A stretch of DNA of 64,000 bases from Candidatus Sericytochromatia bacterium (GTDB lineage Bacteria > Cyanobacteriota > Sericytochromatia > S15B-MN24 > JAQBPE01). Below the pieces are notes generated by a model, which did no database searches, had not been told where the DNA came from, and saw only the letters and a program-made list of their open reading frames with translations. Every line of letters begins with the position of its first letter. The stretch's first letter is position 1. Location: NCBI GenBank assembly GCA_035285325.1, contig JAYKJB010000009.1:10910-74909 (forward strand), written 5' to 3'. Positions 3,653 through 62,668 of the stretch are shown in pieces. The translations under genes and the position numbers were made by a program.

Positions 3653-3837
3653 GCGGACCGGACAATCACAGCTCAGGTTATCTCAAGATTAAGCCAGCTC
3701 AGCTTGGGTGAGATTTCCGCTTGAGCCGCTCAAGCTTGGGTAAGAGCCCATTAGAGCAACGGAATTCACACGTTCCGTTCGAGAACGTGTTGACCATTTG
3801 TGTGCCCCGCCCCCGTGGGATTGAAAGGAGAATCGTG

Positions 3838-6156
3838 ATGAACCGCGCCACATTGACCCGATCCAGCATCGCTATGCTGCTGCTTGCGGTGGCGGCATGT
3901 CAGGCCGCCCCGCCGACGGCTTCTGAGGACACCGGCAAGGTGACCAGCAGCGCCAAGGTCAAGGCAGACCCTCAGGCCAAAGCGGCGCAGCTGATGCGCG
4001 ATACGGGCCTCGAATCTCCCACCGTCTCCCTGGAAGCGAACCAGTTTCAGCTGCGAGACCTGGCGGGCCAACCCATCGAAGGGGCGGTCCTGCAGGTGGG
4101 CGAGGAGCGACTCACGTCAGACGCCCAAGGCATCGTGACGATGCAAACCAGCCTCCCCCAAGGCCAGGAATACCTGGTGGCCATCGCCCAGGCCACCGGT
4201 ATCGTGCCCTCGCGGATCAAGGTCGTGCCTCGCTACTCGGTGCGCTTGCATCCGGCCAACGGAGACATCCACAGCGTGACGGCAGAGAAAGGGGGCAAGT
4301 TCGCGAACGCGGACGGCACCATCGAGGTGACCTTCTCGCCCGGCGCCCTCAACAAAGACGCCCAGGTGCGCGTCACCCGCATCTATGAGGCGCAGCCGAG
4401 TTCAGTCAAGGCCGTCTCCCCGGGTTTTGACCACATCGACACGACCAAATTCGGAGACAACCTGCCGCTGGGACGCTACTCGTACGCGCTGGACCTCGGC
4501 GGGGCTGAAATCACGCCGGGCGCGTCCGTGCGCGTGAACTTCAAGGCTGAGCCGCCCCTCAAGGAGTTCGTGCAAACCTCGCTCAAGAACAACCCCACGG
4601 GCTTTTCGATGAAGGACCTGTTCTCCGTGAGCGCGAACGGAGACGTTCACTTCGCCATGATGGTGCCCGCACCGGCAGCCGAGCCCCCGCTGGCGGATCT
4701 GGCGAGCAAGGCCTTTCGCCTGATGAACGCGGTCTGTAACCAACCCAACGATCCGGAGAATTACACGGTCCAGGTTTGCACGTCTCGTCAGGTCCAGGAT
4801 TGCGTCGACCACGGCAGCCAGTTGCAAATTCATGATCCGGCTATGAACAACGGGCACTGCGTCTACATGAACACCAATCGGTCGTGCAGCGAGATCACCG
4901 TGACCTCCTGCACCAACGAAACTCGGACGCGCTACCACCAGTCGTCCACCATCAACGCCCGGGTGATGTACAGTTCCAATGACAGTCGCTATTCAGGCCA
5001 AGCTGCCTCAGGAGCTCGCGTGAGCTTCTCCCACGTCGGGACCCCGGTACGCGCGCCAGGCTCGACGGCCACTGCGGGCTCCACTGGATACTGCTGGGTT
5101 TATGGGGCGGCCAATGCCGGCGGCTCGGCGACCGCATCGATGCCCGGTGATGCCGGCTCCTATGGCACGATCGCTGGCTACAGCGTGAACTGTGGCACCG
5201 TCAACCTCTCTATCGTCAAGAACATGCCGCGGGTCACCTTTGCCTTCAGTAACAACGGCAGCCCGCTCAATGGCAGTTACTCGCGCGGCACCAGCCACGG
5301 AGACCAGGGTTTCAGCGGATTCAGCAACGTCACCCGGGACATCGCCATGAAAGCGGCCACCGCGGCCAGCGAAGGGTTCACCCTGACGGGGGCCAACTTT
5401 GCCATGGACGGCGGCCAGGTGGATATGAACGACGCGGCTGGAACCATCGGCTGGAACCAGGACAACACCATCAACCTGACGGTCTACCACAACAAGCCCG
5501 TAAGCAGCTCGGCCTCGTATGCCTCGGACGACGCCTCGGTGCCGGACGACCAGCAGCCGACGATCAAGTGGAATGGCCAGAGCGCCAGTGACCTGGCCTA
5601 CCAGTTCACGCACAACGTCTCCGCCTCCTCGAAGAAACCGGCCGGACGCGATCAGCTGTCGTTCAACAACGTCAACACGGCCAGCACCTGGGGCCTCAAT
5701 GGAGCCTCCACCAGTGTGACCGCGACCCGCACCTTCAATGGCGTGTCGCTGTCCGGGGTGGGAACCGGCACGGTCAACGGCGGCAACGTCCCGGTGCAGA
5801 TCAATGCGAACCTGCCGAAGATGACCATCAACTTCGCAGGGTCGAGCCAGGGGGCCTGGATCCTGAACTACCGCGTGACGGATTCCAGTGGCGTGGCCAA
5901 GAACAGGACCACCTCCGTGACCCCGGCTGGCGGCAAGTTGGTCTTCAGCCTGCCCGTCGAGGAGGCGGTCAACAACCCGCTCAAGCACACCATGCAACTG
6001 GACACGATCCTGTCGCAAGATGGCACCTACAGCCTGTCGTTCGAGGAAAGTGCCAACACCCTCACCTTCAACTATCCGGCCATGGGCAACTTGCAGCGTG
6101 GACAGGTATACACCTATCCCCACACCCTGAAGTCCTCGCTGATCGCACCCAAGTGA
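3838..6156 (+). CDS. large surface lipoprotein, Ser/Thr/Asn/Gly-rich with a Cys-rich module; function unknown
   Basis: ATG 3838 is preceded by a GGAG RBS. Lipoprotein signal MNRATLTRSSIAMLLLAVAAC (lipobox VAAC). An 8-Cys cluster lies around AVCNQPNDPENYTVQVCTSRQVQDCVDHG...CVYMNTNRSCSEITVTSCTNE. A long beta-rich S/T/N/G low-complexity C-terminal region follows. Confidence 0.7.
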   Translation: MNRATLTRSSIAMLLLAVAACQAAPPTASEDTGKVTSSAKVKADPQAKAAQLMRDTGLESPTVSLEANQFQLRDLAGQPIEGAVLQVGEERLTSDAQGIVTMQTSLPQGQEYLVAIAQATGIVPSRIKVVPRYSVRLHPANGDIHSVTAEKGGKFANADGTIEVTFSPGALNKDAQVRVTRIYEAQPSSVKAVSPGFDHIDTTKFGDNLPLGRYSYALDLGGAEITPGASVRVNFKAEPPLKEFVQTSLKNNPTGFSMKDLFSVSANGDVHFAMMVPAPAAEPPLADLASKAFRLMNAVCNQPNDPENYTVQVCTSRQVQDCVDHGSQLQIHDPAMNNGHCVYMNTNRSCSEITVTSCTNETRTRYHQSSTINARVMYSSNDSRYSGQAASGARVSFSHVGTPVRAPGSTATAGSTGYCWVYGAANAGGSATASMPGDAGSYGTIAGYSVNCGTVNLSIVKNMPRVTFAFSNNGSPLNGSYSRGTSHGDQGFSGFSNVTRDIAMKAATAASEGFTLTGANFAMDGGQVDMNDAAGTIGWNQDNTINLTVYHNKPVSSSASYASDDASVPDDQQPTIKWNGQSASDLAYQFTHNVSASSKKPAGRDQLSFNNVNTASTWGLNGASTSVTATRTFNGVSLSGVGTGTVNGGNVPVQINANLPKMTINFAGSSQGAWILNYRVTDSSGVAKNRTTSVTPAGGKLVFSLPVEEAVNNPLKHTMQLDTILSQDGTYSLSFEESANTLTFNYPAMGNLQRGQVYTYPHTLKSSLIAPK

Positions 6157-11018: not shown

Positions 11019-11840
11019 GTGACGTTGCCATCACCGATTGCGCTCTATGACTCCGGCCTCGGAGGGCTGTCTGTTCTGCGCGTGCTGACGGCGCGCCTGC
11101 CCGGCGAGTCGTTTCTTTATTTTGGCGATACGGCTCGCGTGCCCTATGGGCCCCGTCCCGCCGCCGAGATCGTGGCCTTCAACCTGCAGATCGCCGACTG
11201 GCTGGTTGCCGAAGGGGCCAAGTGCCTGGTGGTGGCCTGCAACACCTCCTCGGCGTTGGCCCTCACCCGGCTCGAAAATGAGGTGTCCGTCCCGATCGTG
11301 GGGCTGATCCAGGCTGGCGCGGAAGCCGTCGTCGACGCCGCCCCCGACGGTCCGATCGGCCTGATCGCCACCCAGGCGACCGTGGCCAGCGGTGCTTATC
11401 AACGGGCGATCGCCGCCCGGGCCCCCTCCGCCCCGGTGCTGGCGCAGGCGTGCCCCGCCCTGGTGCCGCTGGTGGAGTCCGGTGCCTGGGCCGGCCCCGA
11501 GGCCCACGAAGCGCTGCGTGACTGCCTCGCGCCCTTTCTTGCGACCCCGCCCCGCGCCCTGCTGCTCGGATGCACCCATTACCCTCACCTGGCGCCCCTG
11601 ATCGCATCCTGGCTACCCGGCGTGCCCCTGATCGATCCGGCGATTCGCCTGGCGGACCACGTGGAATCCGTGCTGAGCACGCGCGGGATCGGCGCCTGCC
11701 GGCCGGCCGTGCCCCCGTTGCGCGTCACGGTCAGCGGGGACGCTCAGCGATTCCGGGCCGAGGCGGAACGGCTGATTCCGGGACTGGTTTCCGAAGTGGA
11801 GCGCGTCACGCTGCCGACGCTGGCAGCTGGTCGGCCGTGA
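11019..11840 (+). CDS. murI: glutamate racemase
   Basis: GTG start with an AGGAAG RBS. Glutamate-racemase motifs DSGLGGLSV, CNTSSA and LGCTHYP. Confidence 0.9.
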   Translation: MTLPSPIALYDSGLGGLSVLRVLTARLPGESFLYFGDTARVPYGPRPAAEIVAFNLQIADWLVAEGAKCLVVACNTSSALALTRLENEVSVPIVGLIQAGAEAVVDAAPDGPIGLIATQATVASGAYQRAIAARAPSAPVLAQACPALVPLVESGAWAGPEAHEALRDCLAPFLATPPRALLLGCTHYPHLAPLIASWLPGVPLIDPAIRLADHVESVLSTRGIGACRPAVPPLRVTVSGDAQRFRAEAERLIPGLVSEVERVTLPTLAAGRP

Positions 11841-11926
11841 GCGGCTACGGGCGTCACCGCATGGGACGTGGCCGGAAGGGGTATATAGGGTTGAACCGAC
11901 CTGCCTGCTTCATCAACGGAGTTTCC

Positions 11927-13348
11927 GTGCGCGCCCCTCGTCTCGCCCTGACCGCCCTGCTGGGCGCCGCTGCCTCGCTGGCCCTGACGGCTTGTCCGAT
12001 GCAGATCGTGATCTTCCAGGTCAACCTGGAAAATCCCAACTTGCGGGTCGGCGAGCGAACCATGGTGCGCCTCGAAGCCCAGGTGGGATGGTTTCGCCAA
12101 CCGTTCTTTTACTATCGCGCGGAGCGCGGCCGGCTGGTCGGCCTGAATGGGGAAACCGCACCGCAAGGCGGCTACCTGCGCGCGGGTAACCAGGTCTGGT
12201 ACCACGCCCCCTACACGGCGAGTTATCCCTCGGCGGAGGGCATCCGACAAAACGACACGATCGAAATCATTGCGCAAGATGGCCCCTACACCACGCGCAC
12301 CCAGCGCGTCGTGACCATCACGGGCTCCACCGTGGTCTTCGCCAGCACCGACAACAACGGCCCCAACGGGACCTTGATGACGGCGATCGACAGCGGCGGC
12401 GGCCAGATGCAAAGCCAGCCGCAACCCCTGCTGGACCTGAGCAAGCAGCCCATCAAGGGCTCCTCGCCCGTGATCTCGCCGAACGGGGAGCGCATCGCCT
12501 TCGTGTACTACCCGGGCGATGGCACCAGCAAGGTGGCCATGCGCGACGCGGCCGGCCAGGTGTTGTATCTGACCAACTTCAACCGGGGCCTGGCCCTGGA
12601 CCCCTCCTGGAGCCCGAATGGCTCCTACCTGCTGTTCGCCAGTAACCACGCCGACGACTCGGCCGGCACCTATGACATTTACATGATGAACGTGGATCAG
12701 AACAGTGGCGGCGGCCGCGCCATCACGCGCTTGACCAGCAACACCTGGGATGAGCGTCATCCGGCCTGGAATCCACTGCCGACGGCCCCGGAAGACCGGA
12801 TCATCGCCGTCTCGGCCCGCGCCAATAGCATGAACACCCCGGGCGACCGGACCCAGAACTGGAACATCTTCCTGATGAACCGGCGGGGAACCTACACCCG
12901 GAGTGTCAGCGACATGCAGGGGGACGGCAGCAACTGGGCGGTGGAGCCGGCCTGGCATCCCAACGGTCAGTTGCTGGCCTATACCCGCTTTGGTCCGGTC
13001 GTGAACTACCAGAGCGGAGCGAACAAGTTCCAGCGCATCTTTGTGCAGGACCTGGCGCAAAGCACGGCCATCACGCCGCTGAACATCTCCAATACCGACC
13101 CGATGGGGCGCGAGAGCTCGCCGATCTGGTCGGTGGACCGGCTCAATACCCTTTACTTCTTGCGCACCGAGGCCAACTCGCCCAACATCTCGCGCATTTT
13201 TCAGACCCAGTACCTGCCGGGCAACGTGGGCGGAAACACCTTCCCACCGCAGCTGGTGGCGCCATTTCAGAGTTTGATGTTGCCGCTGACGCTGGTGGGG
13301 GGAACCAATCGAGACATCTCGGGGTTCCACCCGCTGGACTGGCGTTGA
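11927..13348 (+). CDS. TolB-like beta-propeller (PD40/WD40-like) lipoprotein
   Basis: GTG 11927 is preceded by GGAG. Lipoprotein signal MRAPRLALTALLGAAASLALTAC. PD40-like repeats: SPVISPNGERIAFVYYPGDGTSKVAMRD, DPSWSPNGSYLLFASNHADDSAGTYDIYMMN and EPAWHPNGQLLAYTRF. Confidence 0.75.
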   Translation: MRAPRLALTALLGAAASLALTACPMQIVIFQVNLENPNLRVGERTMVRLEAQVGWFRQPFFYYRAERGRLVGLNGETAPQGGYLRAGNQVWYHAPYTASYPSAEGIRQNDTIEIIAQDGPYTTRTQRVVTITGSTVVFASTDNNGPNGTLMTAIDSGGGQMQSQPQPLLDLSKQPIKGSSPVISPNGERIAFVYYPGDGTSKVAMRDAAGQVLYLTNFNRGLALDPSWSPNGSYLLFASNHADDSAGTYDIYMMNVDQNSGGGRAITRLTSNTWDERHPAWNPLPTAPEDRIIAVSARANSMNTPGDRTQNWNIFLMNRRGTYTRSVSDMQGDGSNWAVEPAWHPNGQLLAYTRFGPVVNYQSGANKFQRIFVQDLAQSTAITPLNISNTDPMGRESSPIWSVDRLNTLYFLRTEANSPNISRIFQTQYLPGNVGGNTFPPQLVAPFQSLMLPLTLVGGTNRDISGFHPLDWR

Positions 13349-17859: not shown

Positions 17860-19086
17860 TTACTGCTGGGTGATGGCGCGACCGACGTTGATCCGGCCGT
17901 GGCCGAAGTACTTGTCGAAGCCCTTATCGCCCAGGTCATCCGCGGTCTTCTCGATCCGCTCGCGGATCTGCGCCGCCGTGAAGGAAGGGTTGGCGCTCTT
18001 CACCAGAGCGGCCAGGCCGGCGGTGTGCGGGCAGGCCATCGAGGTGCCCGAGAGGGTGCGATAGCCGCCGCCAGGAACGGTCGACAGGATGTCGGAACCG
18101 GGCGCGCCCACCGAGATGTGCTTGCCGAAGTTGGAGAACGAGGAACGCACGTCGCCGCTGGTGGTGGCGCCGACGGCCATCACACCAGGCGCAGCAGCCG
18201 GGTAGCTGGGACGCTCGGAGTTGTTGTTGCCCATCGCGGCCACCACCAAGGAGCCCTTGTTGATGGCGTGCTTGACGGCTTCATCAATCACGGCCGAGCT
18301 CTGAGGACCACCCAGGCTCATCGAGATGACCTGGCAACCCTGGTCAGCAGCATAGATGATGCCGTTGGCCACACCGGCGTACGACCCGGACCCGCTCTTC
18401 GACAGGACCTTGACCGCGACCATCGAGACCGCCGGAGCCACCCCGACGACGCCACCGTTGCCCAGGCCGGCGCCGACCGAACCGGCGCAGTGGGTGCCGT
18501 GGTAGTGGTCGTCGAACGCATCGTCGTCGTTGTTGACGAAGTCCTTGCCCTTGGCGACCCGGCCACCGAAGTCGACGTGCTTGTGGTCGATGCCGGTGTC
18601 CACCACGCCCACCTTGACCTCAGGCGAACCGGTCGTGACGGCCCAAGCCTTGGCGGCGGCAATCTTTTCCATGCCCCACAGCTTGCCGAGCAGTTCGTCA
18701 TCGGCCTTCACGCCGAAGCCCATCCGCGGGGCCAGGTTGCCGTTGTCGATGATGCGGGCAATGTAGTTGGGCTCCGCGTAAGCCACGTTCGGGTCAGCCT
18801 TGAGGGCGCTGATGGTCTGAGCGGCGTTGGCGGTCTTCACCACCACGGCTTCGATCCGCTCGACCTTGGAGACGGCCTTGAGGCCCATCTTCTGGAGCAC
18901 CGACTGGCGGCCGCGGGCGTCGCGGAACTTGACGACGACCTCACCGGGCACCGCTTGCGCCATCATGTCCCCGGAGCGGGTGTTGGCGAGGTTCAAGCCG
19001 TTCGGCGAAACGCCGCAGCCGACCAGAGCGAGAGTGGTGACAGTGGCGGAAGTCATCAGGACGACTTGCTTCATGCCGTTCTTCAT
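17860..19086 (-). CDS. subtilisin-like serine protease (S8) lipoprotein with I9 propeptide
   Basis: GAGGAG RBS. Lipoprotein signal LALVGC. Catalytic D in VVDTGID, H in HGTHCAG and S in GTSMACPH. An inhibitor-I9-like N-terminal prodomain is present. Confidence 0.9.
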   Translation of the reverse strand: MKNGMKQVVLMTSATVTTLALVGCGVSPNGLNLANTRSGDMMAQAVPGEVVVKFRDARGRQSVLQKMGLKAVSKVERIEAVVVKTANAAQTISALKADPNVAYAEPNYIARIIDNGNLAPRMGFGVKADDELLGKLWGMEKIAAAKAWAVTTGSPEVKVGVVDTGIDHKHVDFGGRVAKGKDFVNNDDDAFDDHYHGTHCAGSVGAGLGNGGVVGVAPAVSMVAVKVLSKSGSGSYAGVANGIIYAADQGCQVISMSLGGPQSSAVIDEAVKHAINKGSLVVAAMGNNNSERPSYPAAAPGVMAVGATTSGDVRSSFSNFGKHISVGAPGSDILSTVPGGGYRTLSGTSMACPHTAGLAALVKSANPSFTAAQIRERIEKTADDLGDKGFDKYFGHGRINVGRAITQQ

Positions 19087-19422
19087 TGAACTTGTTTCTC
19101 CTCGTGGGCCCAGGGGCCGGGGGACAGGGTCATTGGTTAGCTTATGTTTAATTTAAGCTTAACCTTGTGGACCCACTTTAGCACCCGTCCGATTGTGATT
19201 CAAGTACCAGATCGCACATTTAACCTTTCCTTAACCCCGACACGGTAAAACCTTAGAGAAAGGGTTGATTCAAGCAGGCCTCCCACCTCCCCAAAGTCCG
19301 GTGAGACCTACTTCTTCAAGGAACCAACGTGTCCCTTGGAGCAGCGCTGACCCGCCCGCAAAAAAGAATTGAAATCGGCCCGCCGAGGCTCTGATCGCAG
19401 CCTGCTTCAACATAACGCTGCG

Positions 19423-19457
19423 TGCTATAATCCGGACCCCGCGTGTGACGGCACACG
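19423..19457 (+). promoter_or_regulatory. extended -10 promoter (TGcTATAAT) plus 5'UTR hairpin upstream of the TPR gene
   Basis: TG-n-TATAAT at 19423-19431. The hairpin CGTGTG-ACGG-CACACG lies at 19442-19457, just downstream of the predicted transcription start site. Confidence 0.35.
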
Positions 19458-19483: not shown

Positions 19484-22400
19484 ATGGTGAACGCATCGAT
19501 GCCGAGACGCCGCTCTCTTTTCCGTCTGACTTCCCTGCTCCTGGCCGGGGCCACCTGGCTGGCCGCGCCGGCCTTGCCGGTGCTGGCGGCCTCGGGCGCC
19601 ACGCCCGCCGCAGAGGGGCGGACACCGGGCTCAGACCTGGCCTGGTGGACCAAGCTCAACCAGTTGCTCGAGCGCCGTGCCTACCCGGCGGCCGAAGCCG
19701 AATTGAGCGTGGCCTTCAATCTGCCGGGACGCGGCGGCGGCGAGGCGGATCGCCTGGCTTACTGGCTCGGCCACGCGCAGCGTCGCAATGGGAGGAATGC
19801 GGAAGCCCTGCAACACCTGGCGCTGGTTCCTGCCGATTCCCGCTGGTTTCTGCCGGCCCTGCTGGAACGGGCCTTCATTCGGCGCGACCTGGGCGAGGAC
19901 GAGACGGCCATCGGTTTGCTGGAGCAAGCGATCGCCATTCTGCCCGAAGACCTCAAGTCACCCGCCCGCGCCGCATTGGCTGACCTGTATTTCACCAGCG
20001 GACAGTATTCCAAGGCGCTGGAACTGTACCGCGTGCTCGCCAACACCTACGGTCCCGCGCAGGAAAGAGGACTGTTTGCCTGGGGCTGGTCGCTGCTGCG
20101 GCTCAAACAGGAGGAGGCGGCCACCAATGTATGGAAGCAGGCACTCGAGCGCTTTCCGACCAGCCGTTACAGCCAGGCCGTCCGACTGGCCCTGGGCAAT
20201 GTCATGCTCACGCGCGGGGAGCACCTCGCGGCCAGCACTTTCTACAATGAGGCTGCCCGCCATGGCGCAGACGACGCCCTCATGGCCCGCGCGGAGTTGC
20301 TGGCCGGCGAAGCCTACGCTGACGCGAAGGAATATGCCCTGGCCCTGAGCCACTATCGGGCGGTCCCTCCCGAAAGCCCGTTGCGGGAACCGGCCAGTTA
20401 TGGAGAGGCCTGGGCCACCTGGCAACAAGGGCGTGGACCGGAGGCGCTGAACATGTTCACCGCCTGGTTGAAACGCTATCCCCGCAGCAACTACCGCGGG
20501 GGGGTGTACTTCGCGTTGGGGGCACTGGCCCGTGACGCGGGCAACCAGGCTGAGGCCAGCAAGCATTTCGAGCAGGTGCAAAAAGTCGCCCCCCGCTCCA
20601 TCTGGGCGGAAGAAGCGCTTTACGAACTGACCCGCCAGGCGTTCGCCGCGCGCACGCACGACGACGTGCTGACGCTTTGCAAGAAAATGGAGCTTCAATT
20701 TCCGCGCAGTCGCTGGCTGGGGCCGGTCTACTGGATGCGCGGAGAGACCTACCTCGTTCAGGGAAATTTCAGCGAGGCCGTGAAGGCCTATTCGCAACTG
20801 GCGGTACTGGGTAACCAGGCTTTTTTGGTGGGTAAGGGCGAGGAGGTCGACTTCAAGATCGGGTTGGCGCAGTTCTATGCCGGGAACTACCAGGAAGCCG
20901 CGCGCGTGCTGGAGGCCGTCGATCAGGGGCCCTTGCTGGCCGATGCCGTCTTCTGGCAGGGGGAAGCCCGCTACCGGCTGGGCCAGTATGATTCCGCCCG
21001 GGCCTTGTACGGAAAACTGGTTCAGCAACATCCCGACTTCAGCCGACTCACGGAGGCTTTTTACGGACTGGGCTGGGCCTCCTACAAGCTGAAGGACCTG
21101 CCGGGCGCGCGCTCCGCATTCAGTGAAGCCGTTCGACGCTTTCCCGAGGGCCGCATGCGACAAGATGCCCTCTATCGACTCGGGCTGGTGCTGGTGGAGA
21201 TGCGCGAGTGGGAAGCCGCGCGCAAGACGTTCGAAACCCTGCTGAAAAGTCCGCTCGAACCAAACCTGGCGGCGGAGACTCGATTTCAGATCGCCTGGAG
21301 CCTGAACCGACAGGACCGTCTGGAGGAGGCGGCCGAGGCATTCGGCGCGTTGCTCAATCTGCCCGCGGCTCAGGACCTGGTCCCCCGCGCCCTGCTGTGG
21401 CGAGGACGCGCCTATTTCCGTTTGAAGCGATTTCCCGAAGCCATCACGGCCCTCAAAGCGGCCACCGAGCATCCGGAAAGTTCCCCCTCCTTGCGAGTGG
21501 AGGCCGGTCAGCAGCTGGCCGCAGCCCACTTCAACATTGGCCAATTCGTCGAATCCCGCAAGGCATACGAAGCGCTGCTCAACTCCGGCTCCCTGCCCCC
21601 TGACCACCAGCAGGAAATCAAGCAGGGCGTCGTGCAGTCCCTGCTGAAGGCCGGAGATTACAAGCAGGCACGCCTCGAGATTTCCCGGAGCGGTGCCGTG
21701 TCGGACAGCGACGTGCCCACCCTGCTGGCCATCGGCCAGGGCTTCGTCGATCAGGCCAATTGGGACGAAGTGCTGGAGACGTATCGCATCGCTGGCAAGG
21801 CCTGCCCCCCCACGCTGCGCCACTGGGCCGGGCGAGCCCTGCTGGAAAAGCGCCAATGGGCCGACGCGGCCGCGGTGCTGCAGCCGTTGCGCGAAACGAC
21901 GGACCAGGAGTTGAAACCGCTCGCGCAGTACGATCTGGCCCGCGCTCAGCGGGGCGCCGGGGACCTGGCCGCCGCCAAAGACAACCTGGTGGCCCTTTCG
22001 GAGGCCTATCCCGGCAAGGACATCGGGGCCCTGGCCCTGCGCGAAGCCGCTGAGGTGGCGCGGGAACAAAAGGACTTCCCAGCCGCCCAAAATCTGTTCC
22101 GGCGCGTGGCCGAAAACCACGGTTTCCCGCTGGAACGACGCAGACAGGCCTGGATGGACTTGGGAGACCTGCACCGCCAGGCCAAGCAATGGGGTCCCGC
22201 GCTGCTGGCCTATCGCGGCGCGCGCGGCTTGAGCTCCCCCAACAGCCTGCCGGCTGCCTTGGGCGGCTACTGGGCGGGTCACGTGCTGGTGGAGATGCGG
22301 CAGTTCAAGGAAGCCGTGCGAGAGCTCTCGGGCCTCAAATTCCCGGACAATGCCGAACCTCTGCCTTCCCTCGCGGCGCTCAAGCTGGGCGAGGCACTCG

Positions 22401-22537
22401 AGCAACTGGGGCGCTGGCGAGAGGCCGTCGAGGTGTACAACCGCCTGTCGAACTTGCCCCCGTCAACCGAGCGCACGGATGCGCGCGCCCGCCTTGACTG
22501 GATCGAAAAAAATATCCCCAAGGAGGCCCGCCAATGA
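19484..22537 (+). CDS. large secreted tetratricopeptide-repeat (TPR) protein
   Basis: 1017 aa. Signal peptide RRRSLFRLTSLLLAGATWLAAPALPVLAAS. The rest is TPR-like helical repeats with recurring Y/F/W/A/L/G patterns. Confidence 0.8.
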   Translation: MVNASMPRRRSLFRLTSLLLAGATWLAAPALPVLAASGATPAAEGRTPGSDLAWWTKLNQLLERRAYPAAEAELSVAFNLPGRGGGEADRLAYWLGHAQRRNGRNAEALQHLALVPADSRWFLPALLERAFIRRDLGEDETAIGLLEQAIAILPEDLKSPARAALADLYFTSGQYSKALELYRVLANTYGPAQERGLFAWGWSLLRLKQEEAATNVWKQALERFPTSRYSQAVRLALGNVMLTRGEHLAASTFYNEAARHGADDALMARAELLAGEAYADAKEYALALSHYRAVPPESPLREPASYGEAWATWQQGRGPEALNMFTAWLKRYPRSNYRGGVYFALGALARDAGNQAEASKHFEQVQKVAPRSIWAEEALYELTRQAFAARTHDDVLTLCKKMELQFPRSRWLGPVYWMRGETYLVQGNFSEAVKAYSQLAVLGNQAFLVGKGEEVDFKIGLAQFYAGNYQEAARVLEAVDQGPLLADAVFWQGEARYRLGQYDSARALYGKLVQQHPDFSRLTEAFYGLGWASYKLKDLPGARSAFSEAVRRFPEGRMRQDALYRLGLVLVEMREWEAARKTFETLLKSPLEPNLAAETRFQIAWSLNRQDRLEEAAEAFGALLNLPAAQDLVPRALLWRGRAYFRLKRFPEAITALKAATEHPESSPSLRVEAGQQLAAAHFNIGQFVESRKAYEALLNSGSLPPDHQQEIKQGVVQSLLKAGDYKQARLEISRSGAVSDSDVPTLLAIGQGFVDQANWDEVLETYRIAGKACPPTLRHWAGRALLEKRQWADAAAVLQPLRETTDQELKPLAQYDLARAQRGAGDLAAAKDNLVALSEAYPGKDIGALALREAAEVAREQKDFPAAQNLFRRVAENHGFPLERRRQAWMDLGDLHRQAKQWGPALLAYRGARGLSSPNSLPAALGGYWAGHVLVEMRQFKEAVRELSGLKFPDNAEPLPSLAALKLGEALEQLGRWREAVEVYNRLSNLPPSTERTDARARLDWIEKNIPKEARQ

Positions 22538-24105
22538 GGCATGCCCGGGTGCGCCTCCTCTCTTGTCTGGCCTGGTTGCCCGGGTTGCTGGTGATGGCCA
22601 CTCCTGCGCTCGCGGAGGCCGAGGGTGGCGACGAAAAGCTGCCGGCCCAGTTGCCCACCGTGACCATTCAGGGCAAGGATCTGTCGCAGCAGGAAGGGGA
22701 TGCCAACCTGCGCATCGCCCCTCAACTGGGGCAGTGGAATTCGCGCGTAACCATTCCGGAAACGCCGCAGCGTCGCGCCACGGCCGAAGACAACCGGACC
22801 TTGATGGTGGGGGTGACCCCTACGACCGTGGAGCCTCCCACCCCCTTGCCGACAGCCCAGATGCCCTACACGAGCGTGATGGGTGGCTGGGGCCCCCTGC
22901 TTCAATACCGGGCCGGCGTGTATGATGCCCGCTGGTGGGGCCCCGCCATGGGGGTCACGGAAATTGAGGGTCGCGCAGGCTGGGGCTGGTCCGGCTGGCA
23001 AGCCCGGGAATGGCTCGATTGGCCGGGTGTCGCGCGCGCGGGCGGCAACGGGGAAGGGTTTTTCTGGCAGGCGGGCGGCAAGGAGGGTCGGCAAAACGCC
23101 TATGGGCTCACGCTCGACCTGGGTCCCAAGCGTCCCTGGGGGGCGTCGCTGCGCTATGAACGAGGCGCGGCCGAGGGGGCGAGCCAGTCGCTCTACACCC
23201 AGCGTGCCGCGGCCGTCGCCAACTGGCGACCCCAGCTGGGGGGCAAGGACCATCGGTCGGAGCTGGACCTCACGCTGCAGCACCGAATCTGGGGCAAACA
23301 AGACGGCGCTGAGGGTTACGTGCGATTCTCGGACGTCTGGACTCTGTCCGATCACCTGGAACTGGAAGGCGCGCTGGGGGGAGGCTACTGGGGACGTGAG
23401 CCGATCCTGGATCCCAGCGTGCTCTTTCACCTGCGCCCCTCGGTCCTGACCCACCTGTTCGTCGGCCTCAAAGCGCGCAGTGAGTTACCCGACTTCGAGG
23501 CACTCTATCTGCGTCGACCAGCCACCGCCGCCAACGATGATCTGCAAGCCGAGCGCGTCCAGGGCTGGGCTCAGCTGGGCGGCAGCCACCGCCTGACCGA
23601 CCAGGTCTGGGCGCACATCAGTGGCGACCTGCGTCAAAGCAAGCGTCTCATTTTCTGGTCCGACAAGGATGGCGACGGCCTCTGGCAGCCGGCCAACAAC
23701 GCCGATGACCAATGGACCCAGGTGCTGGATGGCCGCCTGCAGATCAACTGGCTGCCTGGCTTGCAGCAGAACATCAAGGCCCTGGTGCGCTCGACCCAGC
23801 CGCTCGGATTCAGCGAGCTACGTCTGGCCACCAATGCGGAGGGCAGCCTGCCCGGCCCGGCGGCGCCGATCGCCTATTCCGTCTCGCTGGACCACCGCCA
23901 GGCCCAACTGTCCACCGAGCAAATTCAAGGGGGCGGACTGGCCAATGGTCTGTTCGCCGAGGCGGACCTGCGCTATCCGCTCAGTCAGGACCTGCACCTG
24001 GGACTGCGGATTGCGGATGTGCCATTGATCCTGAACCAGCCGAGCGCCCCGAACTATTTTGCCCCCACTCCCCTGCTCACGGGCCACGTCCAGTACCTGT
24101 TCTGA
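22534..24105 (+). CDS. outer-membrane beta-barrel protein
   Basis: The ATG overlaps the TGA of the upstream TPR gene (ATGA coupling). Signal peptide LLSCLAWLPGLLVMATPALA. The C-terminus ...GHVQYLF ends in an aromatic Phe, as BAM substrates do. Alternating beta-strand-like pattern. Confidence 0.65.
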   Translation: MRHARVRLLSCLAWLPGLLVMATPALAEAEGGDEKLPAQLPTVTIQGKDLSQQEGDANLRIAPQLGQWNSRVTIPETPQRRATAEDNRTLMVGVTPTTVEPPTPLPTAQMPYTSVMGGWGPLLQYRAGVYDARWWGPAMGVTEIEGRAGWGWSGWQAREWLDWPGVARAGGNGEGFFWQAGGKEGRQNAYGLTLDLGPKRPWGASLRYERGAAEGASQSLYTQRAAAVANWRPQLGGKDHRSELDLTLQHRIWGKQDGAEGYVRFSDVWTLSDHLELEGALGGGYWGREPILDPSVLFHLRPSVLTHLFVGLKARSELPDFEALYLRRPATAANDDLQAERVQGWAQLGGSHRLTDQVWAHISGDLRQSKRLIFWSDKDGDGLWQPANNADDQWTQVLDGRLQINWLPGLQQNIKALVRSTQPLGFSELRLATNAEGSLPGPAAPIAYSVSLDHRQAQLSTEQIQGGGLANGLFAEADLRYPLSQDLHLGLRIADVPLILNQPSAPNYFAPTPLLTGHVQYLF

Positions 24106-24125
24106 CCCCCTTGGCGAGTCTGCCC

Positions 24126-25064
24126 ATGTACCCACCCCCTCCCTCCCCGCGCCCATCGCCACTCGCTGCTCCCCCAGCGGGCAGGCGGCGTGCCGGTCGG
24201 AAGGCGGCCCCTCGCTGGCTGAACCGGGAGGTGCCGCCCCCCCCACTGGGCCTCACCCCGCGGCGAACGACCGCCTGGGGAGCTTCGCTGAGCCTGCACG
24301 CGTTGCTGGCAGCCCTGCTGGCCCTGGGCACCTTCGCTCCCCCCGCCGCGCAGAAGGAACCCGAGACCAGCCGGGTGATCGAGGTGGAGTTCATCGAAGC
24401 GCCGGTGGTGGTGACCCAACGCCAGGCCGCGGCACCGCAGCGCGCCGCGCCTCAACCGGACCCGGTGCAGGCCCAGGCGCCTCCCAGGCCAGCGCCCAAA
24501 CCGGCCCCTGCGACCGCCGCAGCCCCCAGGCGCGCGCCGAAACCGCTGAGCAAGCCCGTGGTCTCGCGCCCGGTGCGGGTGACTCATCAGGCGCCGGAGT
24601 TGCCGGTGAACCAGACCCCCTCCCCGGAGGAATTGATTCGCCTGGCCGCGGCGGCACGCGCCAAGCGCTCGGAGAGCGATGCGGCCACCCGCCTGGCCAA
24701 TCTGCGCGAGGAGGGTACCCCTCAGGCGGTGGCCAATGGTCAACCGGATGCGCGTCAAGGCACGGCAAGCGTCCGCCAGGCGAGGCCACAGGGCGAACTG
24801 TCGGGGCGGGGGGTGCTGAGTGCCCCCTCTCCGCAGTACCCGGAGGTGGCGCAACGGAATATCTGGGAAGGCACGGCCCAGATCCGCGTCTACGTGAATC
24901 CCGACGGCAGCGTCCGCGACGCGGAGGTCGTCGGGTCTTCGGGCTTTGCCGTGCTCGATGCGGCCGCCCGTCGCGCGGCGACCGGCTACCAGTTCACGCC
25001 CCTGGCGGGTGGGGAATCCCAGATCGAGAGCGGCGTGATCCCGTTCAGCTTCGTGATCCGCTGA
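24126..25064 (+). CDS. TonB-family C-terminal domain protein, proline-rich
   Basis: TM helix LHALLAALLALGTF, then a Pro/Ala-rich spacer. C-terminal TonB-like domain: PQYPEVAQRNIWEGTAQIRVYVNPDGSVRDAEVVGSSGFAVLDAAARRAATGYQFTP. Confidence 0.75.
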   Translation: MYPPPPSPRPSPLAAPPAGRRRAGRKAAPRWLNREVPPPPLGLTPRRTTAWGASLSLHALLAALLALGTFAPPAAQKEPETSRVIEVEFIEAPVVVTQRQAAAPQRAAPQPDPVQAQAPPRPAPKPAPATAAAPRRAPKPLSKPVVSRPVRVTHQAPELPVNQTPSPEELIRLAAAARAKRSESDAATRLANLREEGTPQAVANGQPDARQGTASVRQARPQGELSGRGVLSAPSPQYPEVAQRNIWEGTAQIRVYVNPDGSVRDAEVVGSSGFAVLDAAARRAATGYQFTPLAGGESQIESGVIPFSFVIR

Positions 25065-25118: not shown

Positions 25119-25313
25119 CTATTCGGGTTCTTCCTCGGGCTCGGCTTTTTTCGGCTGGATGCCCAGCGTCTTCTGGGCTTCCGCCACAAACTGGTCAAAC
25201 CCCTTCGGGTCGGCCGTTCTCACAATGTGAACCGTCAGGGCGCACACCCCGATTCCAACCAGAATCGTCAGGAAAGCGGCAAACCAGGAGGGGCCTTCTT
25301 CTTCGTCCGCCAT
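25119..25313 (-). CDS. small membrane protein (64 aa), hypothetical
   Basis: Acidic N-terminus, one TM helix (WFAAFLTILVGIGVCALTVHIV) and a charged tail. It lies downstream of phnE on the same strand. Confidence 0.4.
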   Translation of the reverse strand: MADEEEGPSWFAAFLTILVGIGVCALTVHIVRTADPKGFDQFVAEAQKTLGIQPKKAEPEEEPE

Positions 25314-30327: not shown

Positions 30328-31584
30328 GTGGCCGACGAAGACAAGCGACACGATCCGACGCCTCACAAATTGGATGAGGAGCGCAAAAAGGGCAACGTCC
30401 TGAAGGTGCAGGACCTGCTCGCCGCCGCCATCATCTTCGTCTCGGCTTACGCCCTGGCGTGGTCGGCAGAATTCGCCTACCAGTACGTCTATGCCTTTAT
30501 CGTCGAGATCCTGCGCAGCATTCCGGAGTATCAGGGGCTGAGTGTGGCCCAGGCCCGCTGGTTGCTCTGGCGGGTGGTCCTGGTGGTCGTCATCAGCACC
30601 ACGCCCTTCGTGGTCCTGATCCTGCTGACGGTGCTGGTGGTCCTGTATGCCCAGGTGGGCTTCCTGATCACGTTCAAACCGCTGGAGCCGAAATACGAAA
30701 AAATCGACCCGGTCAACGGCTTCAAAAACAAGGTCAATCCGTTCAAGGTCAAGCAGCTGTTCAACCTGGTCAAAACCCTGCTGGTTTGCCTCGTGATCGG
30801 TTACTTGGTGTTCGACGTGGTCCGGGACAACCTGGCCACGATTCTGCAGAGCGCCACCCTCTCGGTCACCGGCGCGCTGGGCCTGATTGGCTTCCTGATA
30901 CTGGAGGTGGCCAAAAAAGTCGCCCTGTTCATGCTCGTGGTCGCCTTCGTCTCGTACCTGTTCGAGCGCTGGCAATGGTGGAAAGGCCTGAAGATGTCCG
31001 ACAAGGAGATCAAGGATGAGTACAAGAAGCTGGAAGGCGACCCCCATATCAAGGGCAAGCAACGCCAGAAGATGATGGAAATTTCTTCCGGCGCCATGCG
31101 TGAGGTGGTCCCCAATGCCGACGTGGTGGTCACCAACCCGACCCACTTTGCCGTGGCGCTGGAATACAAGCCCAAGCGCGGAATGAAGGCGCCCAAGGTG
31201 CTGGCCAAGGGCAAGGGGCGCCAGGCGCTGCTGATCCGACAAATTGCAGAGGAAAACTTCATCCCCACGGTCGAAGACCCCCCGACGGCACGCGCCCTCT
31301 ATGACCAGGTCAAGGTGGGGCAAAGCATTCCCCCCGAACTGTTCGTGGCGGTGGCCAAGATCATCGCCACCATCATGCGCAAACGGCAAAGGCCGGCCGC
31401 CCTGCCGGTCGTTCCCTCTCTGACCGGTTACGTCCCTGCCCTGATCGAGCCGGCTCCGCCACCAGCCCGCACCCAAGCGGGGTCCCCGCCGTCAGCCGCA
31501 GCGAGCGAACCGGCCGCGGAAACGAGGCCCGAAATCGATGCGGCCGAAGCCATCCCCCCCGCCCCCCCCTCAGCCCCCACCTGA
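30328..31584 (+). CDS. flhB: FlhB/YscU-family type III export-gate protein homolog (orphan)
   Basis: GTG start with a GGAGG RBS. Four N-terminal TM segments. The conserved NPTH autocleavage site (VTNPTHFAVAL) and a PKVLAKGKG block are present. A ~70-aa Pro/Ala-rich C-terminal extension follows. Confidence 0.8.
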   Translation: MADEDKRHDPTPHKLDEERKKGNVLKVQDLLAAAIIFVSAYALAWSAEFAYQYVYAFIVEILRSIPEYQGLSVAQARWLLWRVVLVVVISTTPFVVLILLTVLVVLYAQVGFLITFKPLEPKYEKIDPVNGFKNKVNPFKVKQLFNLVKTLLVCLVIGYLVFDVVRDNLATILQSATLSVTGALGLIGFLILEVAKKVALFMLVVAFVSYLFERWQWWKGLKMSDKEIKDEYKKLEGDPHIKGKQRQKMMEISSGAMREVVPNADVVVTNPTHFAVALEYKPKRGMKAPKVLAKGKGRQALLIRQIAEENFIPTVEDPPTARALYDQVKVGQSIPPELFVAVAKIIATIMRKRQRPAALPVVPSLTGYVPALIEPAPPPARTQAGSPPSAAASEPAAETRPEIDAAEAIPPAPPSAPT

Positions 31585-31623
31585 CAGCGACGGCGATGAA
31601 AGGGTTTCGACCGGGAACCCGTT

Positions 31624-31652
31624 TTGACGCTCGCATACCCCCGTGCTATCTT
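31624..31652 (+). promoter_or_regulatory. strong sigma70-type promoter for the SLH-porin gene
   Basis: TTGACG, a 17-nt spacer, then TATCTT. The ORF starts at TTG 31713, with a GGAGG RBS upstream. Confidence 0.5.
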
Positions 31653-31712
31653 GCCTGGGCGCGTCCTGAGCCCAACCCGGCAGACGTCGCCGTCGATTGG
31701 AGGGTCCCCGTC

Positions 31713-33467
31713 TTGAACGCACGTCTTCGCTTGATCACCTGCCTGACGGCTGGCCTCGCGCCGTGGTTCGCAACGCCCGTTCTGGCGTACACGCCGGTCA
31801 GTGAGCTGAAGGACGTGGGGTCGGACCACTGGGCCCGGGAAGCCATCGTGGCCTTGGTCGAGAAATATGAAGTCATGGATGGCTTCAGCGACAAGACCTT
31901 CCGGGGCTCGCGGACCCTCACGCGCTATGAACTGGCTGCGGCCCTCGCCAAGGTGATGGCCAAGGTCGAGGAACAAATTGCCAGTGCGACGGGCAATCCG
32001 ATCAGCCTCGACCCCAGCGTCAACACCGACGATCTTCGGACGATTGCGCGCCTGCAGCGGGAATTCCGGGACGAACTGGAGGTGCTCAAGGGCCGCACGG
32101 ACAGCCTCGACTCGCGGCTTTCCACCGTCGAGAAGCGCGCTCGCCTCAGCGGCGAGATTCGCAACGAATACCGCTCGTATCTGGGCGCGATGCCGGCCGC
32201 CCAGTGGCCGACAGATGACACCCGCGTTCGCAGCCGGCTCAACCTGGATGCCGCCCTCGCCGACGACGTGGCGGCTCACAGCAGCCTGTTCTGGGACGTT
32301 TACGGGCCGGTGGGAGCCGGGGCTGCCTTCGCGACGCCCGGTCGCCCGGACACGCCCTTCACCGAAGCGTACCTTTCGCGCGCCTACGTGAGCTACACCC
32401 CCGGGACCTGGGCCCTGCACACGGGCGTGATGAACGCCAGCGACGTGCTGACCCTCGGCTCGAGTTTCAAGAACCCCTTCACCCAGAATGTCTGGCGCGA
32501 TGGCCTGGGCGGCTATGGGTTCGTGGGTACGCCCGGCCTGGCCCTGGGCAGCGGTGACCTGGTGGCCCGGCTCAAGCTGAATGGGGAGGCCCGCCCGGCC
32601 AACCCGGCCTGGTGGCTGCCGGGCACGGATGTGGCCCTGCAGGCGCTGGACCCCAACGCCACGCAGCCACTGGCCCCTCGCGGGAATTACATGGCAGCCG
32701 CAGGCACCCAGATGGGCCCCTTCCAGCTGGGCCTGGCCTATTACCAGGGCGGACTTTCCGGACGAGACGTGGAACGCCTGAACACGCTGGGCTACGCGGA
32801 CAGTCTGCCTCAACTGGAAGGCACGCTGCCTGGCGGACGGATGCTGGCCACCGTGGGAGGAGACTTCGGCGTCGTGCGTGCTCAGCTAGCGGCCAAGACG
32901 GTGGGATTGCCGACCGATGCGCCGGATGCGGCCAACAAGACCCTGACGAGCACACTGGATGTCGGCAGCGAGGCCTTGGGTCTCAGTCTTCAAACCGTTT
33001 CCCGGACTGCCTTTACGGGCAATTTCAACCCTTCGCAAGCCAGCCTCACGCTGGCCAGCAATGACCTGTTTGGCACGGGGTTCGGCCTGGGTCTGGGCCT
33101 GAATGCCGGCAGTGTGGTCGGTACCCGTCTCAGCAACGGTCAGCCGTTTCAGTTCAGTGGCCGGAATCTGATGCAAGGCCTGGCAGGAGCCGATTATGCC
33201 AGCTACGGAGCGACGCTGCGGATCCCTGGCTTCTCGATCTTCCCTCACCTGACGCTGGCGGCCCAGCAGACAGGCGGCCCCAATCTCGAACGCACGCTGG
33301 GCTCGGGGCTGACGCTGCAAACCGAAATCCAGATCGCCCAGTTGCCGCGTATCCAGGTGGAGTATTCCTCCGGCAAGTTCGACCCCGGCACTGACAACGG
33401 CCTGCTCAACAACGCCGCCCTCGTGTCCCACGAACTGCTCGCCGCCCAGATGCTCGTGCCCTTCTGA
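31713..33467 (+). CDS. SLH-domain outer-membrane porin (SlpA/OmpM-type): SLH, coiled coil, C-terminal beta-barrel
   Basis: Signal peptide MNARLRLITCLTAGLAPWFATPVLA. SLH motif: ELKDVGSDHWAREAIVALVEKYEVMDGFSDKTFRGSRTLTRYELAAALAKV. A heptad coiled coil is followed by a beta-rich C-terminal half ending ...MLVPF, with a terminal Phe. Confidence 0.85.
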   Translation: MNARLRLITCLTAGLAPWFATPVLAYTPVSELKDVGSDHWAREAIVALVEKYEVMDGFSDKTFRGSRTLTRYELAAALAKVMAKVEEQIASATGNPISLDPSVNTDDLRTIARLQREFRDELEVLKGRTDSLDSRLSTVEKRARLSGEIRNEYRSYLGAMPAAQWPTDDTRVRSRLNLDAALADDVAAHSSLFWDVYGPVGAGAAFATPGRPDTPFTEAYLSRAYVSYTPGTWALHTGVMNASDVLTLGSSFKNPFTQNVWRDGLGGYGFVGTPGLALGSGDLVARLKLNGEARPANPAWWLPGTDVALQALDPNATQPLAPRGNYMAAAGTQMGPFQLGLAYYQGGLSGRDVERLNTLGYADSLPQLEGTLPGGRMLATVGGDFGVVRAQLAAKTVGLPTDAPDAANKTLTSTLDVGSEALGLSLQTVSRTAFTGNFNPSQASLTLASNDLFGTGFGLGLGLNAGSVVGTRLSNGQPFQFSGRNLMQGLAGADYASYGATLRIPGFSIFPHLTLAAQQTGGPNLERTLGSGLTLQTEIQIAQLPRIQVEYSSGKFDPGTDNGLLNNAALVSHELLAAQMLVPF

Positions 33468-39280: not shown

Positions 39281-39351
39281 GAGCCGGTGATGGGAATCGA
39301 ACCCACGCCCCAAGCTTGGGAAGCTCGTTTGCTACCATTACAACACACCGG
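39281..39351 (-). tRNA. tRNA-Gly (anticodon CCC)
   Basis: The reverse complement folds as a cloverleaf: acceptor stem GCCGGTG/CACCGGC, D-arm TTGT-AATGGTA-GCAA, anticodon stem-loop CGAGC-TTCCCAA-GCTTG, and a T-arm GTGGG-TTCGATT-CCCAT. No CCA is encoded. Confidence 0.85.
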
Positions 39352-39394
39352 CAGCGCGTGTTGGCGGTATTGTAGGCCGCCAGCCATCGTGGCG

Positions 39395-39988: not shown

Positions 39989-40062
<74 letters not shown>

Positions 40063-62632: not shown

Positions 62633-62668
62633 AATCCATTGTTTTGCTTCCGGGGACAGGAGATCGCG

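Follow-up and report, generated by a model that had tools for sequence, protein, structure and literature searches.

What does a TonB protein act on when its operon partners are a predicted outer-membrane barrel without a plug and a secreted tetratricopeptide repeat (TPR) protein of about 1000 residues? This question is raised by a three-gene locus in a 64-kb stretch of DNA (the window) from a Candidatus Sericytochromatia metagenome-assembled genome (MAG). On the + strand, the locus encodes a secreted TPR protein of 1017 aa (19484-22537), an outer-membrane protein of 523 aa with a signal peptide, an N-terminal extension and a predicted 22-strand barrel of the TonB-dependent transporter (TBDT) type (22534-24105), and a TonB-family energy transducer of 312 aa, counted from an ATG at 24126 (24126-25064). 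An initial annotation had compared this trio with the Agl-Glt gliding complexes of myxobacteria. Here, we describe the operon and its products and argue that, because it combines TonB, a plug-less TBDT-type barrel and a TPR protein, it is better understood as a variant of a known envelope machine than as a gliding complex. Our default reading, which we hold to be probable by a modest measure, is that of a lineage-specific barrel/TonB/TPR module of the Ton type in Sericytochromatia, in which TonB would gate the barrel.

A conserved three-gene operon

The three genes are tightly linked on one strand. The stop codon of the TPR gene and the start codon of the barrel gene share the tetranucleotide ATGA at 22534-22537, preceded by a GGAGG sequence 7 nt upstream of the ATG (coupling junction, 22522-22537, + strand), and the ATG of the tonB gene follows 20 nt after the barrel stop codon. 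Both junctions are as the initial annotation had read them directly from the sequence, the second one with the ATG at 24126. The NCBI annotation of the same MAG places all starts later (TPR gene at 19499, barrel gene at a GTG at 22549, tonB at a GTG at 24231), so the exact lengths of the overlap and the gap vary with start choice. A GGAG-type site with a 4-nt or 1-nt overlap recurs at the TPR/barrel junction in most of 12 related loci, in which neighbouring genes either share 1 or 4 nt at their ends or are separated by a few nucleotides. Because the Shine-Dalgarno sequence and the overlap are conserved in this way, we accept the start at 22534 and translational coupling of the barrel gene to the TPR gene. 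A terminator-like stem followed by a T-run lies 59 nt past the tonB stop codon (25123-25144, + strand); it is the sole such site between 19000 and 25400, yet shuffled sequences average 4.8, which makes it a weak candidate.

The order TPR, barrel, TonB is the same in all 12 related loci whose junctions were read, at barrel identities down to 24%. More broadly, the trio is complete and in order both in the window and wherever a related locus offers sufficient flanking sequence (L001-L004, L006-L009, L012, L014, L015 and L022-L025), which places the association beyond chance, with TPR genes ranging from 941 to 1066 aa. The flanking genes differ among these loci. Close relatives keep the upstream side of the window (a DEAD helicase, OpgC and an S8 protease, then the trio) as well as its downstream side (a small membrane open reading frame (ORF), a phosphonate ATP-binding cassette (ABC) transporter, a CCA/poly(A)-polymerase-family gene, FlhB and a porin with a surface-layer homology (SLH) domain). 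Elsewhere, the trio is followed by DUF1385/M50 genes and directly preceded by a helicase (L006), followed by GAF-HD and MarR genes (L012 and L015) or by a PIN toxin and succinate dehydrogenase (L024), or inserted between rplJ-rplL and ftsEX (L025). The three genes thus are a tightly coupled operon, as had been proposed from the window, and the comparison of synteny in related loci shows this operon to be a conserved unit.

The barrel protein of the window has few relatives. At 100% identity, it matches a hypothetical protein from a Candidatus Sericytochromatia MAG, and the 21 relatives retrieved by a word-indexed search share 47-62% identity with it. When 1.84 billion cluster representatives were searched exhaustively with a profile, the yield was 21 matches in all, including members at 19-27% identity, and no sequence link from this family to other barrels. 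A scan of a genome collection with the close alignment finds six loci, all in Sericytochromatia or 'Cyanobacteria bacterium' MAGs, with one trio locus in each of the six genomes. The named sources of the family are Sericytochromatia MAGs, 'Cyanobacteria bacterium' MAGs (one of them from groundwater) and one 'Oscillatoriaceae cyanobacterium', with further members in metagenome contigs. From these few matches and their named sources, we conclude that the barrel family is rare, lineage-restricted and uncurated; as far as sequence matches indicate, the trio is confined to non-photosynthetic relatives of cyanobacteria.

A barrel of the TonB-dependent transporter type

The second protein of the operon has a signal peptide (cleavage at ALA|E) and ends in ...VQYLF, and its terminal phenylalanine, the aromatic residue of a C-terminal beta-signal, is at least 90% conserved in the family. 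By itself, the window protein matches no model in Pfam or NCBIfam, and PDB sequence searches with the single sequence and with the family profile gave nothing useful. Two AlphaFold2 (AF2) models were built. The first, from 21 close sequences, has a predicted local distance difference test score (pLDDT) of 69, and its Foldseek matches are already TBDTs only. The second, from 33 sequences including distant members, reaches a pLDDT of 82 and a predicted template modelling score (pTM) of 0.75, with residues 107-523 modelled confidently (block means of ~86-98, mostly above 90). In this model, the protein is predicted to form a barrel of exactly 22 strands (residues 112-523; 22867-24102, + strand), the first at residues 112-119 and the last at 514-522. 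The inter-strand connections span 2-12 residues, bar one of 22, and the barrel lacks the long loops with which classical receptors bind ligands at the surface. The claim that the middle protein is an outer-membrane beta-barrel, which had been based on its signal peptide and terminal residues, agrees with this strand count, which speaks against a non-barrel protein.

Structural comparison points to a specific ancestry. All of the best 50 Foldseek matches in the PDB are TBDTs, led by BtuB (E = 3e-13), with Cir, PirA, PfeA, OprC and ChuA following; the template modelling (TM) score to BtuB is 0.57 when normalised on the full 523 residues, ~100 of which are unmodelled. At the sequence level, the TBDT barrel family PF00593 is matched by 5 of 19 family members, colinear over the barrel, in two cases above the gathering cutoff of 27 (P0034 with 35.9 bits and P0026 with 27.5 bits). 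A profile of the ten most distant members gives a weak PDB match to Bacteroides BtuB3 (8p97_A, E = 0.019), in which their motif elPsFeeLYlsR...gNgaLlpqr is aligned to FPTLNDLY..GGNPALNNE. In the window protein, the corresponding loop motif is SELPDFEALYLRR...NDDLQAER (residues 316-343; 23479-23562, + strand), equivalent to the (F/A)P(S/T)(L/F)xxLY...GNPxLxxE motif of TBDTs. Within it, P319, R328 and L337 are invariant in the family, and F321, L324, Y325 and R341 are at least 90% conserved. Taken together, the predicted structure and the family profiles identify the middle protein as a 22-strand barrel of the TBDT superfamily, and, as set out below, one without a plug. The remark in the initial annotation that the protein is too short for a plugged 22-strand receptor was thus correct as to the plug, while the fold itself is nonetheless of the 22-strand TBDT type.

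An extension in place of the plug

Known plugs comprise ~130-150 residues. In the window protein, only ~65 residues lie between the N-terminal motif described below and the first strand of the barrel, and the N-terminal extension as a whole (residues 28-111; 22615-22866, + strand) shows no plug fold by AF2 or Pfam. Residues 21-106 have a pLDDT below 50 in both AF2 models, and the extension, which contains 13% proline, is predicted to be unstructured in both. No signal of the plug family PF07715 was found in any family member in 29 scans at E <= 1. These observations also bear on the simplest alternative, namely an ordinary nutrient TBDT paired with its TonB and an accessory TPR protein, in which a plug is present and too divergent to be detected or modelled. 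Such a reading would account for the homology of the barrel to TBDTs, and conservation across residues 72-111 exceeds the mean for the barrel (0.78 vs 0.69), which suggests a constrained structure; the alignment behind the better model is also shallow (33 sequences). The short and proline-rich extension, the empty plug scans, the minimal loops, which are unlike those of ligand-binding TBDTs, and the lack of Fur-box-like or riboswitch control all argue against it, and we consider an ordinary receptor very unlikely. The statement in the initial annotation that this is not a standard TonB-dependent uptake locus is likewise consistent with a barrel without a plug and with a giant TPR partner.

The extension carries a conserved element at its start. 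Directly past the signal peptide, at the mature N-terminus, the window protein has the TonB-box-like strand motif KLPAQLPTVTIQG (residues 35-47; 22636-22674, + strand), and the consensus KLPxxLPxVxVxG is found in 33 of 33 aligned members. L40, P41 and G47 are three of only 12 invariant columns in the family, and the motif is the best-conserved segment of the protein (0.85 among close and 0.77 among all members, compared with 0.69 and 0.54 for the barrel). The segment has the alternating hydrophobic pattern and the location expected of a TonB box. We term the motif only TonB-box-like, because proline replaces the acidic or amide residue of the classical pattern.

A recent survey describes the plug as a conserved feature of every known TBDT (bioRxiv 10.64898/2026.07.15.738633). 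In the literature that we searched, no paper describes a natural family of plug-less TBDTs with a dedicated TonB. The chloroplast protein OEP37 has been predicted to form a plug-free 22-strand barrel (bioRxiv 10.64898/2026.07.15.738633); no sequence link was found between OEP37 and the present family, which belongs to a sister lineage of cyanobacteria.

The TonB protein and its motor

The third protein, named 'energy transducer TonB' by NCBI, matches PF03544 (TonB_C) with 60.3 bits (cutoff 24.6; E = 2.5e-16) and TIGR01352 with 62 bits (cutoff 27.1). Its score on the TolA-type TonB_2 model is 22 bits, well below that for TonB_C. The protein is anchored by a single membrane helix, AWGASLSLHALLAALLALGTF (24273-24335, + strand), with a motif of the SHLS type: S54-x3-H58, followed by L at +11 and T at +15. 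The S-x3-H pair is invariant in this helix among the aligned TonB proteins of nine loci. In known systems, the SHLS motif and its histidine are a required contact with the ExbBD/TolQR motor (PMC12204202). The helix is followed by a spacer (residues 71-170) with 23% proline and 19% alanine, then by a short helical stretch, and a PQYP...EG segment leads into the TonB_C domain (from the PQYP motif at residue 236; 24828-25055, + strand). A search for paralogues with this protein returned orthologues only. Judged by its sequence, the third protein is a genuine, typical TonB, with the membrane anchor, Pro/Ala-rich linker and TonB-type domain that had been noted earlier.

No match to MotA/ExbB or ExbD was found among 34 window ORFs scanned against Pfam (of 36 window ORFs, two phosphonate-transporter genes were assigned from synteny only), and tblastn with two ExbB-like queries was negative against all fetched Sericytochromatia loci. 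The earlier remark that neither exbB/exbD nor tolQ/tolR is adjacent thus extends to the window ORFs and to the fetched flanks. The energy source is assumed, because no ExbB/ExbD was found in these regions, and the motor would have to be encoded elsewhere in the genome. The alternative that the initial annotation had itself named, a canonical TonB served by an exbBD pair encoded elsewhere, is partly borne out, in that every TonB hallmark tested is present. Among the papers searched, none joins Sericytochromatia and TonB.

The TPR protein and the case for a tether

The first protein has a signal peptide and consists almost entirely of TPRs (TPR_6, TPR_2 and TPR_16, E ~1e-43 to 1e-48), as had been described before. 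It also matches the YbgF/CpoB model TIGR02795 in seven stretches, with 197 bits summed; because the protein has 1017 aa and CpoB ~260, we take this match to reflect repeat type and not orthology. Its orthologues occupy the same position in seven loci and are colinear over ~970-1000 residues at 28-67% identity. Beyond these, the best matches are TPR proteins of about 1000 aa from Planctomycetota and other phyla, some of which are named 'TolA-binding protein'. Their alignments are out of register and agree at repeat level only, and they were rejected as orthologues.

In five outgroup loci, a gene of the MotA/TolQ/ExbB family lies directly 3′ of such an unrelated TPR gene of about 1000 aa. In these metagenome contigs, namely L026 (7965-12115), L030 (7887-11927), L029, L031 and L032, the TPR gene and the MotA/TolQ/ExbB gene are followed by a gene for a protein with squalene-hopene-cyclase-like repeats. 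The same adjacency, within TPR-tolQ-tolR clusters, has been reported for bacteria of the Planctomycetes-Verrucomicrobia-Chlamydiae (PVC) group (PMC12204202). Since the similarity to the window protein is at repeat level, we use this adjacency as a parallel only: by analogy, large YbgF-type TPR proteins may be recurrent genetic partners of force-transduction systems of the Ton/Tol type.

The YbgF/CpoB-like repeats raise the question whether the operon serves Tol-Pal-like tethering and outer-membrane homeostasis. Here, a TonB/TolA-like protein would pull on the N-terminal 'box' of the barrel as TolA does on the N-terminus of TolB. The barrel would, with the same small likelihood, act as an anchor and not as a channel, and the CpoB-like TPR protein would couple the process to the cell wall. 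A barrel with neither a plug nor appreciable surface loops fits an anchor better than a receptor. The trio also lies amid housekeeping genes (rplJL and FtsEX in L025; accA/D, pfk and flhB in the window), is present once per genome in the six genomes of the scan, and has a promoter that looks constitutive (extended -10) and no riboswitch. Furthermore, architecture does not separate a proline-rich TolA from TonB, and further systems that stabilise the outer membrane are anticipated (PMC12204202). Against a tether stand the C-terminal domain of the third protein, which scores far higher as TonB_C than as the TolA type and has the PQYP motif of TonB, and the absence of TolB or Pal nearby (the one PD40 protein of the window scores 53 against a 343-bit cutoff). 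A 22-strand barrel would also be a costly anchor. On balance, tethering seems unlikely to us, though it is the foremost of the distinct alternatives.

The likeness to Glt/Agl-type gliding complexes, or to other motility-linked trans-envelope complexes, fares worse. What is shared is the parts list: TPR proteins, outer-membrane barrels and TonB-C proteins, as in the Glt system of Myxococcus. When the proteins were compared with hidden Markov models, the GltE model gave 24 bits where 225 are required, a value that reflects generic TPR similarity; the barrel, which is of the TBDT type, matches no Glt or other NCBIfam model, and the TonB-C protein matches generic TonB models only. Furthermore, no AglRQS/MotAB-type gene occurs in the window or the flanks, and in none of the loci is the trio embedded in a larger cluster of at least 10 glt genes; it stands alone. 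The analogy drawn by the initial annotation is thus not upheld, and we give a gliding machine almost no credence.

Proposed mechanism

In the Ton-type module that we favour, TonB would sit in the inner membrane and dock via its S-x3-H helix on a proton motor of the ExbBD/TolQR type, with its Pro/Ala-rich linker spanning the periplasm and ending in the TonB_C domain. The barrel would be its cognate outer-membrane partner, derived from a TBDT by loss of the globular plug and of the long surface loops, with the strand-forming KLPxxLPxVxVxG motif retained on a flexible N-terminal extension of ~80 residues. Translational coupling would keep the amount of the TPR superhelix (~1000 aa) in a constant ratio to that of the barrel. 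As in known Ton systems, TonB_C may capture the N-terminal motif by beta-strand pairing in the manner of a TonB box, so that the remote ExbBD-type motor could pull on the extension of the barrel. This pull might either remove an irregular occluding segment from the lumen, thereby gating the channel, or transmit force to the outer membrane. Candidates for closing the barrel are the extension itself, the conserved loop at residues 318-339, or the TPR protein, which most likely acts as a periplasmic scaffold or adaptor of the complex. Established in this model are the conserved gene order, the TBDT-derived barrel fold, the lack of a canonical plug and the hallmarks of TonB, whereas the contact of the motif with TonB, the gating and the part played by the TPR protein are inferred.

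Several observations weigh against this model. The N-terminal motif has a proline where the core of the classical TonB-box pattern (of the PROSITE type) expects D, E, N or F. Neither ExbB nor ExbD was found in the 64 kb of the window or in the flanks retrieved for the related loci. The assignment of the barrel to the TBDTs draws on family members, a predicted structure and one weak PDB profile match, the window protein itself having no Pfam match. Without a plug, a barrel of 22 strands would leave the outer membrane with a very wide opening, which needs some form of closure. Finally, with surface loops this small, the barrel offers no evident site for a ligand and is ill-suited to high-affinity uptake.

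A more specific proposal would join these features: a plug-free barrel of the TBDT superfamily on a flexible tether, a dedicated TonB and a CpoB-like TPR protein might together form a housekeeping force link between the inner and outer membranes, which would act as a substitute for Tol-Pal or as a TonB-gated pore closed by a partner, and not as a nutrient receptor. We offer this as a tentative possibility, which falls clearly short of the default of a gated Ton-type module.

Control region

The operon is preceded by a 25-nt promoter block, ACATAACGCTGCGTGCTATAATCCG (19410-19434, + strand), that contains an extended -10 element and no recognisable -35. The extended -10 (TGCTATAAT, 19423-19431) occurs only once in the window (expected 0.03), and the block is conserved in loci of 47-56% barrel identity (L007 and L006, and partly L004 and L001). 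A promoter consensus scan that needs both hexamers gave no match and no usable -35, and the leader contains no riboswitch or other Rfam element and no Fur-box-like control. The palindrome AGCTTA-N9-TAAGCT (19139-19159) is also unique in the window (expected 0.01) and partly conserved. It is part of an AT-rich block by the start codon of the S8 protease gene (19139-19230; TTAA-N8-9-GTTAACCTT and ATTTAACC..CTTAA), which is conserved in L001, L004 and L007 and probably serves to regulate the S8 gene or both genes. Of the control elements proposed initially, the extended -10 and the palindrome thus stand, the latter with partial conservation, and the 5′ untranslated region hairpin (19442-19457) does not: it is insignificant compared with shuffled sequences (z = -0.5), is not conserved, and was rejected.

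The S8 protease and the case for export

Divergent to the trio, the window encodes an S8 protease with a fervidolysin-type propeptide (17860-19086, - strand). A lipobox (LVGC, ATGC or AAC before Gly/Ser) is conserved in six of six homologues; because of the lipobox and the propeptide, the protein is probably a lipoprotein subtilase. The window shares this divergent arrangement of an S8 gene next to the trio with L001, L004, L007, L022, L023 and L024, down to 35% barrel identity. None adjoins the trio in L006, L012 and L025, for which reason the protease was rejected as part of the unit; L014 has a different S8 protein of 545 aa, 2.4 kb away on the other strand. The divergent neighbour that had been pointed out is present here, but it is lineage-restricted and no constant partner.

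The protease gives some substance to yet another reading, in which the operon serves export across the outer membrane, either in the manner of AlgK/AlgE, BcsC, PgaA or PelB, or as an Oar-like system with the S8 lipoprotein protease as cargo. A TPR module plus a barrel is the architecture of synthase-dependent polysaccharide exporters, and the Myxococcus TBDT Oar exports the subtilisin-like protease PopC, a precedent for TonB-dependent export. The lipobox-bearing protease lies next to the trio in the window and the six loci named above. No glycosyltransferase or synthase adjoins the trio in any locus, the barrels of AlgE, BcsC and PgaA are absent from the best 50 Foldseek matches, and the loci with no adjoining S8 gene, or with a different and distant one, also count against this reading. 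We therefore regard export as improbable, ahead only of an ordinary receptor and a gliding complex.

Other features of the window

Convergent with tonB, a 64-aa ORF for a single-pass membrane protein (MADEEEGPSWFAAFLTILVGIGVCALTVH..., 25119-25313, - strand) is conserved in L001 and L004; L006 and L007 have a different small ORF with a single transmembrane helix in its place. Further along are the flagellar export gene FlhB (30328-31584, + strand) and a porin with an SLH domain of the cyanobacterial 'por_somb' type (31596-33467, + strand; 103 bits vs a cutoff of 100). Upstream of the trio, a PD40 beta-propeller protein (11570-13348, + strand) is not TolB (52.8 bits vs a cutoff of 343). Five long ORFs with coding-like GC content at third codon positions (3721-6156, 45370-46824, 50358-51839, 51907-53544 and 62639-63793, + strand) match no Pfam family at E <= 1e-5. 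Two tRNA genes (39282-39352 and 39989-40062, - strand) are the sole Rfam matches in the window.

Significance and comparison with known systems

A TonB protein with a TBDT-fold barrel is a known kind of system, and the present variant is undescribed in curated libraries or in the literature searched. It is distinguished by the missing plug, the near absence of loops, the obligate giant TPR partner, the dedicated TonB in the operon and the restriction to Sericytochromatia. To our knowledge, every characterised TBDT has a plug, and in the accepted mechanism TonB unfolds or extracts it. A plug-less 22-strand barrel with a TonB-contact-like strand and a TonB of its own would thus be a natural minimal machine and a possible exception to the plug rule. 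It raises the mechanistic questions of how TonB force is used without a plug and how so wide a barrel is closed, and it offers a concrete candidate for how diderms other than Proteobacteria stabilise or energise their outer membrane. Its impact is limited by the fact that all of this is predicted, from MAGs of an uncultured group.

Among the closest known systems are the TBDTs and their TonB (BtuB, Cir, PirA, FepA/PfeA; PF00593 + PF07715). They share with the present system the (predicted) 22-strand barrel, for which they are the best structural matches, the barrel motif (F/A)PxFxxLY...GNxxLxxE, the C-terminal aromatic residue and a conserved short N-terminal strand motif. As in these systems, there is a TonB with an S-x3-H helix, a proline-rich spacer and a TonB_C domain, here encoded alongside the barrel. 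The differences lie in the plug, in place of whose 130-150 folded residues there are ~65 unstructured ones, in the surface loops, in the proline of the motif as opposed to the acidic or amide residue of TonB boxes, in the obligate link to a secreted TPR protein of ~1000 aa, and in a window protein too divergent for detection by PF00593.

With Tol-Pal (TolA, the 'TolA box' of TolB, and CpoB/YbgF), the operon has in common a transducer of the TonB/TolA family, a partner with a short disordered N-terminal strand, a TPR protein with repeats of the YbgF/CpoB type in the operon and a housekeeping neighbourhood. It differs in that no locus has a TolB beta-propeller or Pal, tolQR is not adjacent, the partner is an integral 22-strand barrel, the transducer domain is TonB_C and not TolA-type, and the TPR protein is ~4 times as long as CpoB. 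The TPR-tolQ-tolR-vWA clusters of Planctomycetota and other PVC bacteria (PMC12204202; vWA, von Willebrand factor A) likewise couple a large TPR gene to a Ton/Tol-type apparatus. They contain a motor and a vWA transducer, have neither a TBDT-type barrel nor TonB_C, and their TPR likeness is at repeat level.

Two further groups resemble the operon in composition. The Agl-Glt system of Myxococcus contains TPR proteins, outer-membrane barrels and proteins with a TonB-C domain, whereas the present locus has no specific Glt homology, no Agl motor, three genes as opposed to a large cluster, and a barrel of the TBDT type. AlgK/AlgE, BcsC, PgaA, PelB and Slam join a periplasmic TPR module, genetically or physically, to an outer-membrane barrel. 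Their barrels have 14-18 strands and operate without TonB, and none of them is among the structural matches found here; for Slam in particular, the TPR_Slam model gives the window TPR protein 18 bits against a cutoff of 35, and the flanks contain no synthase genes.

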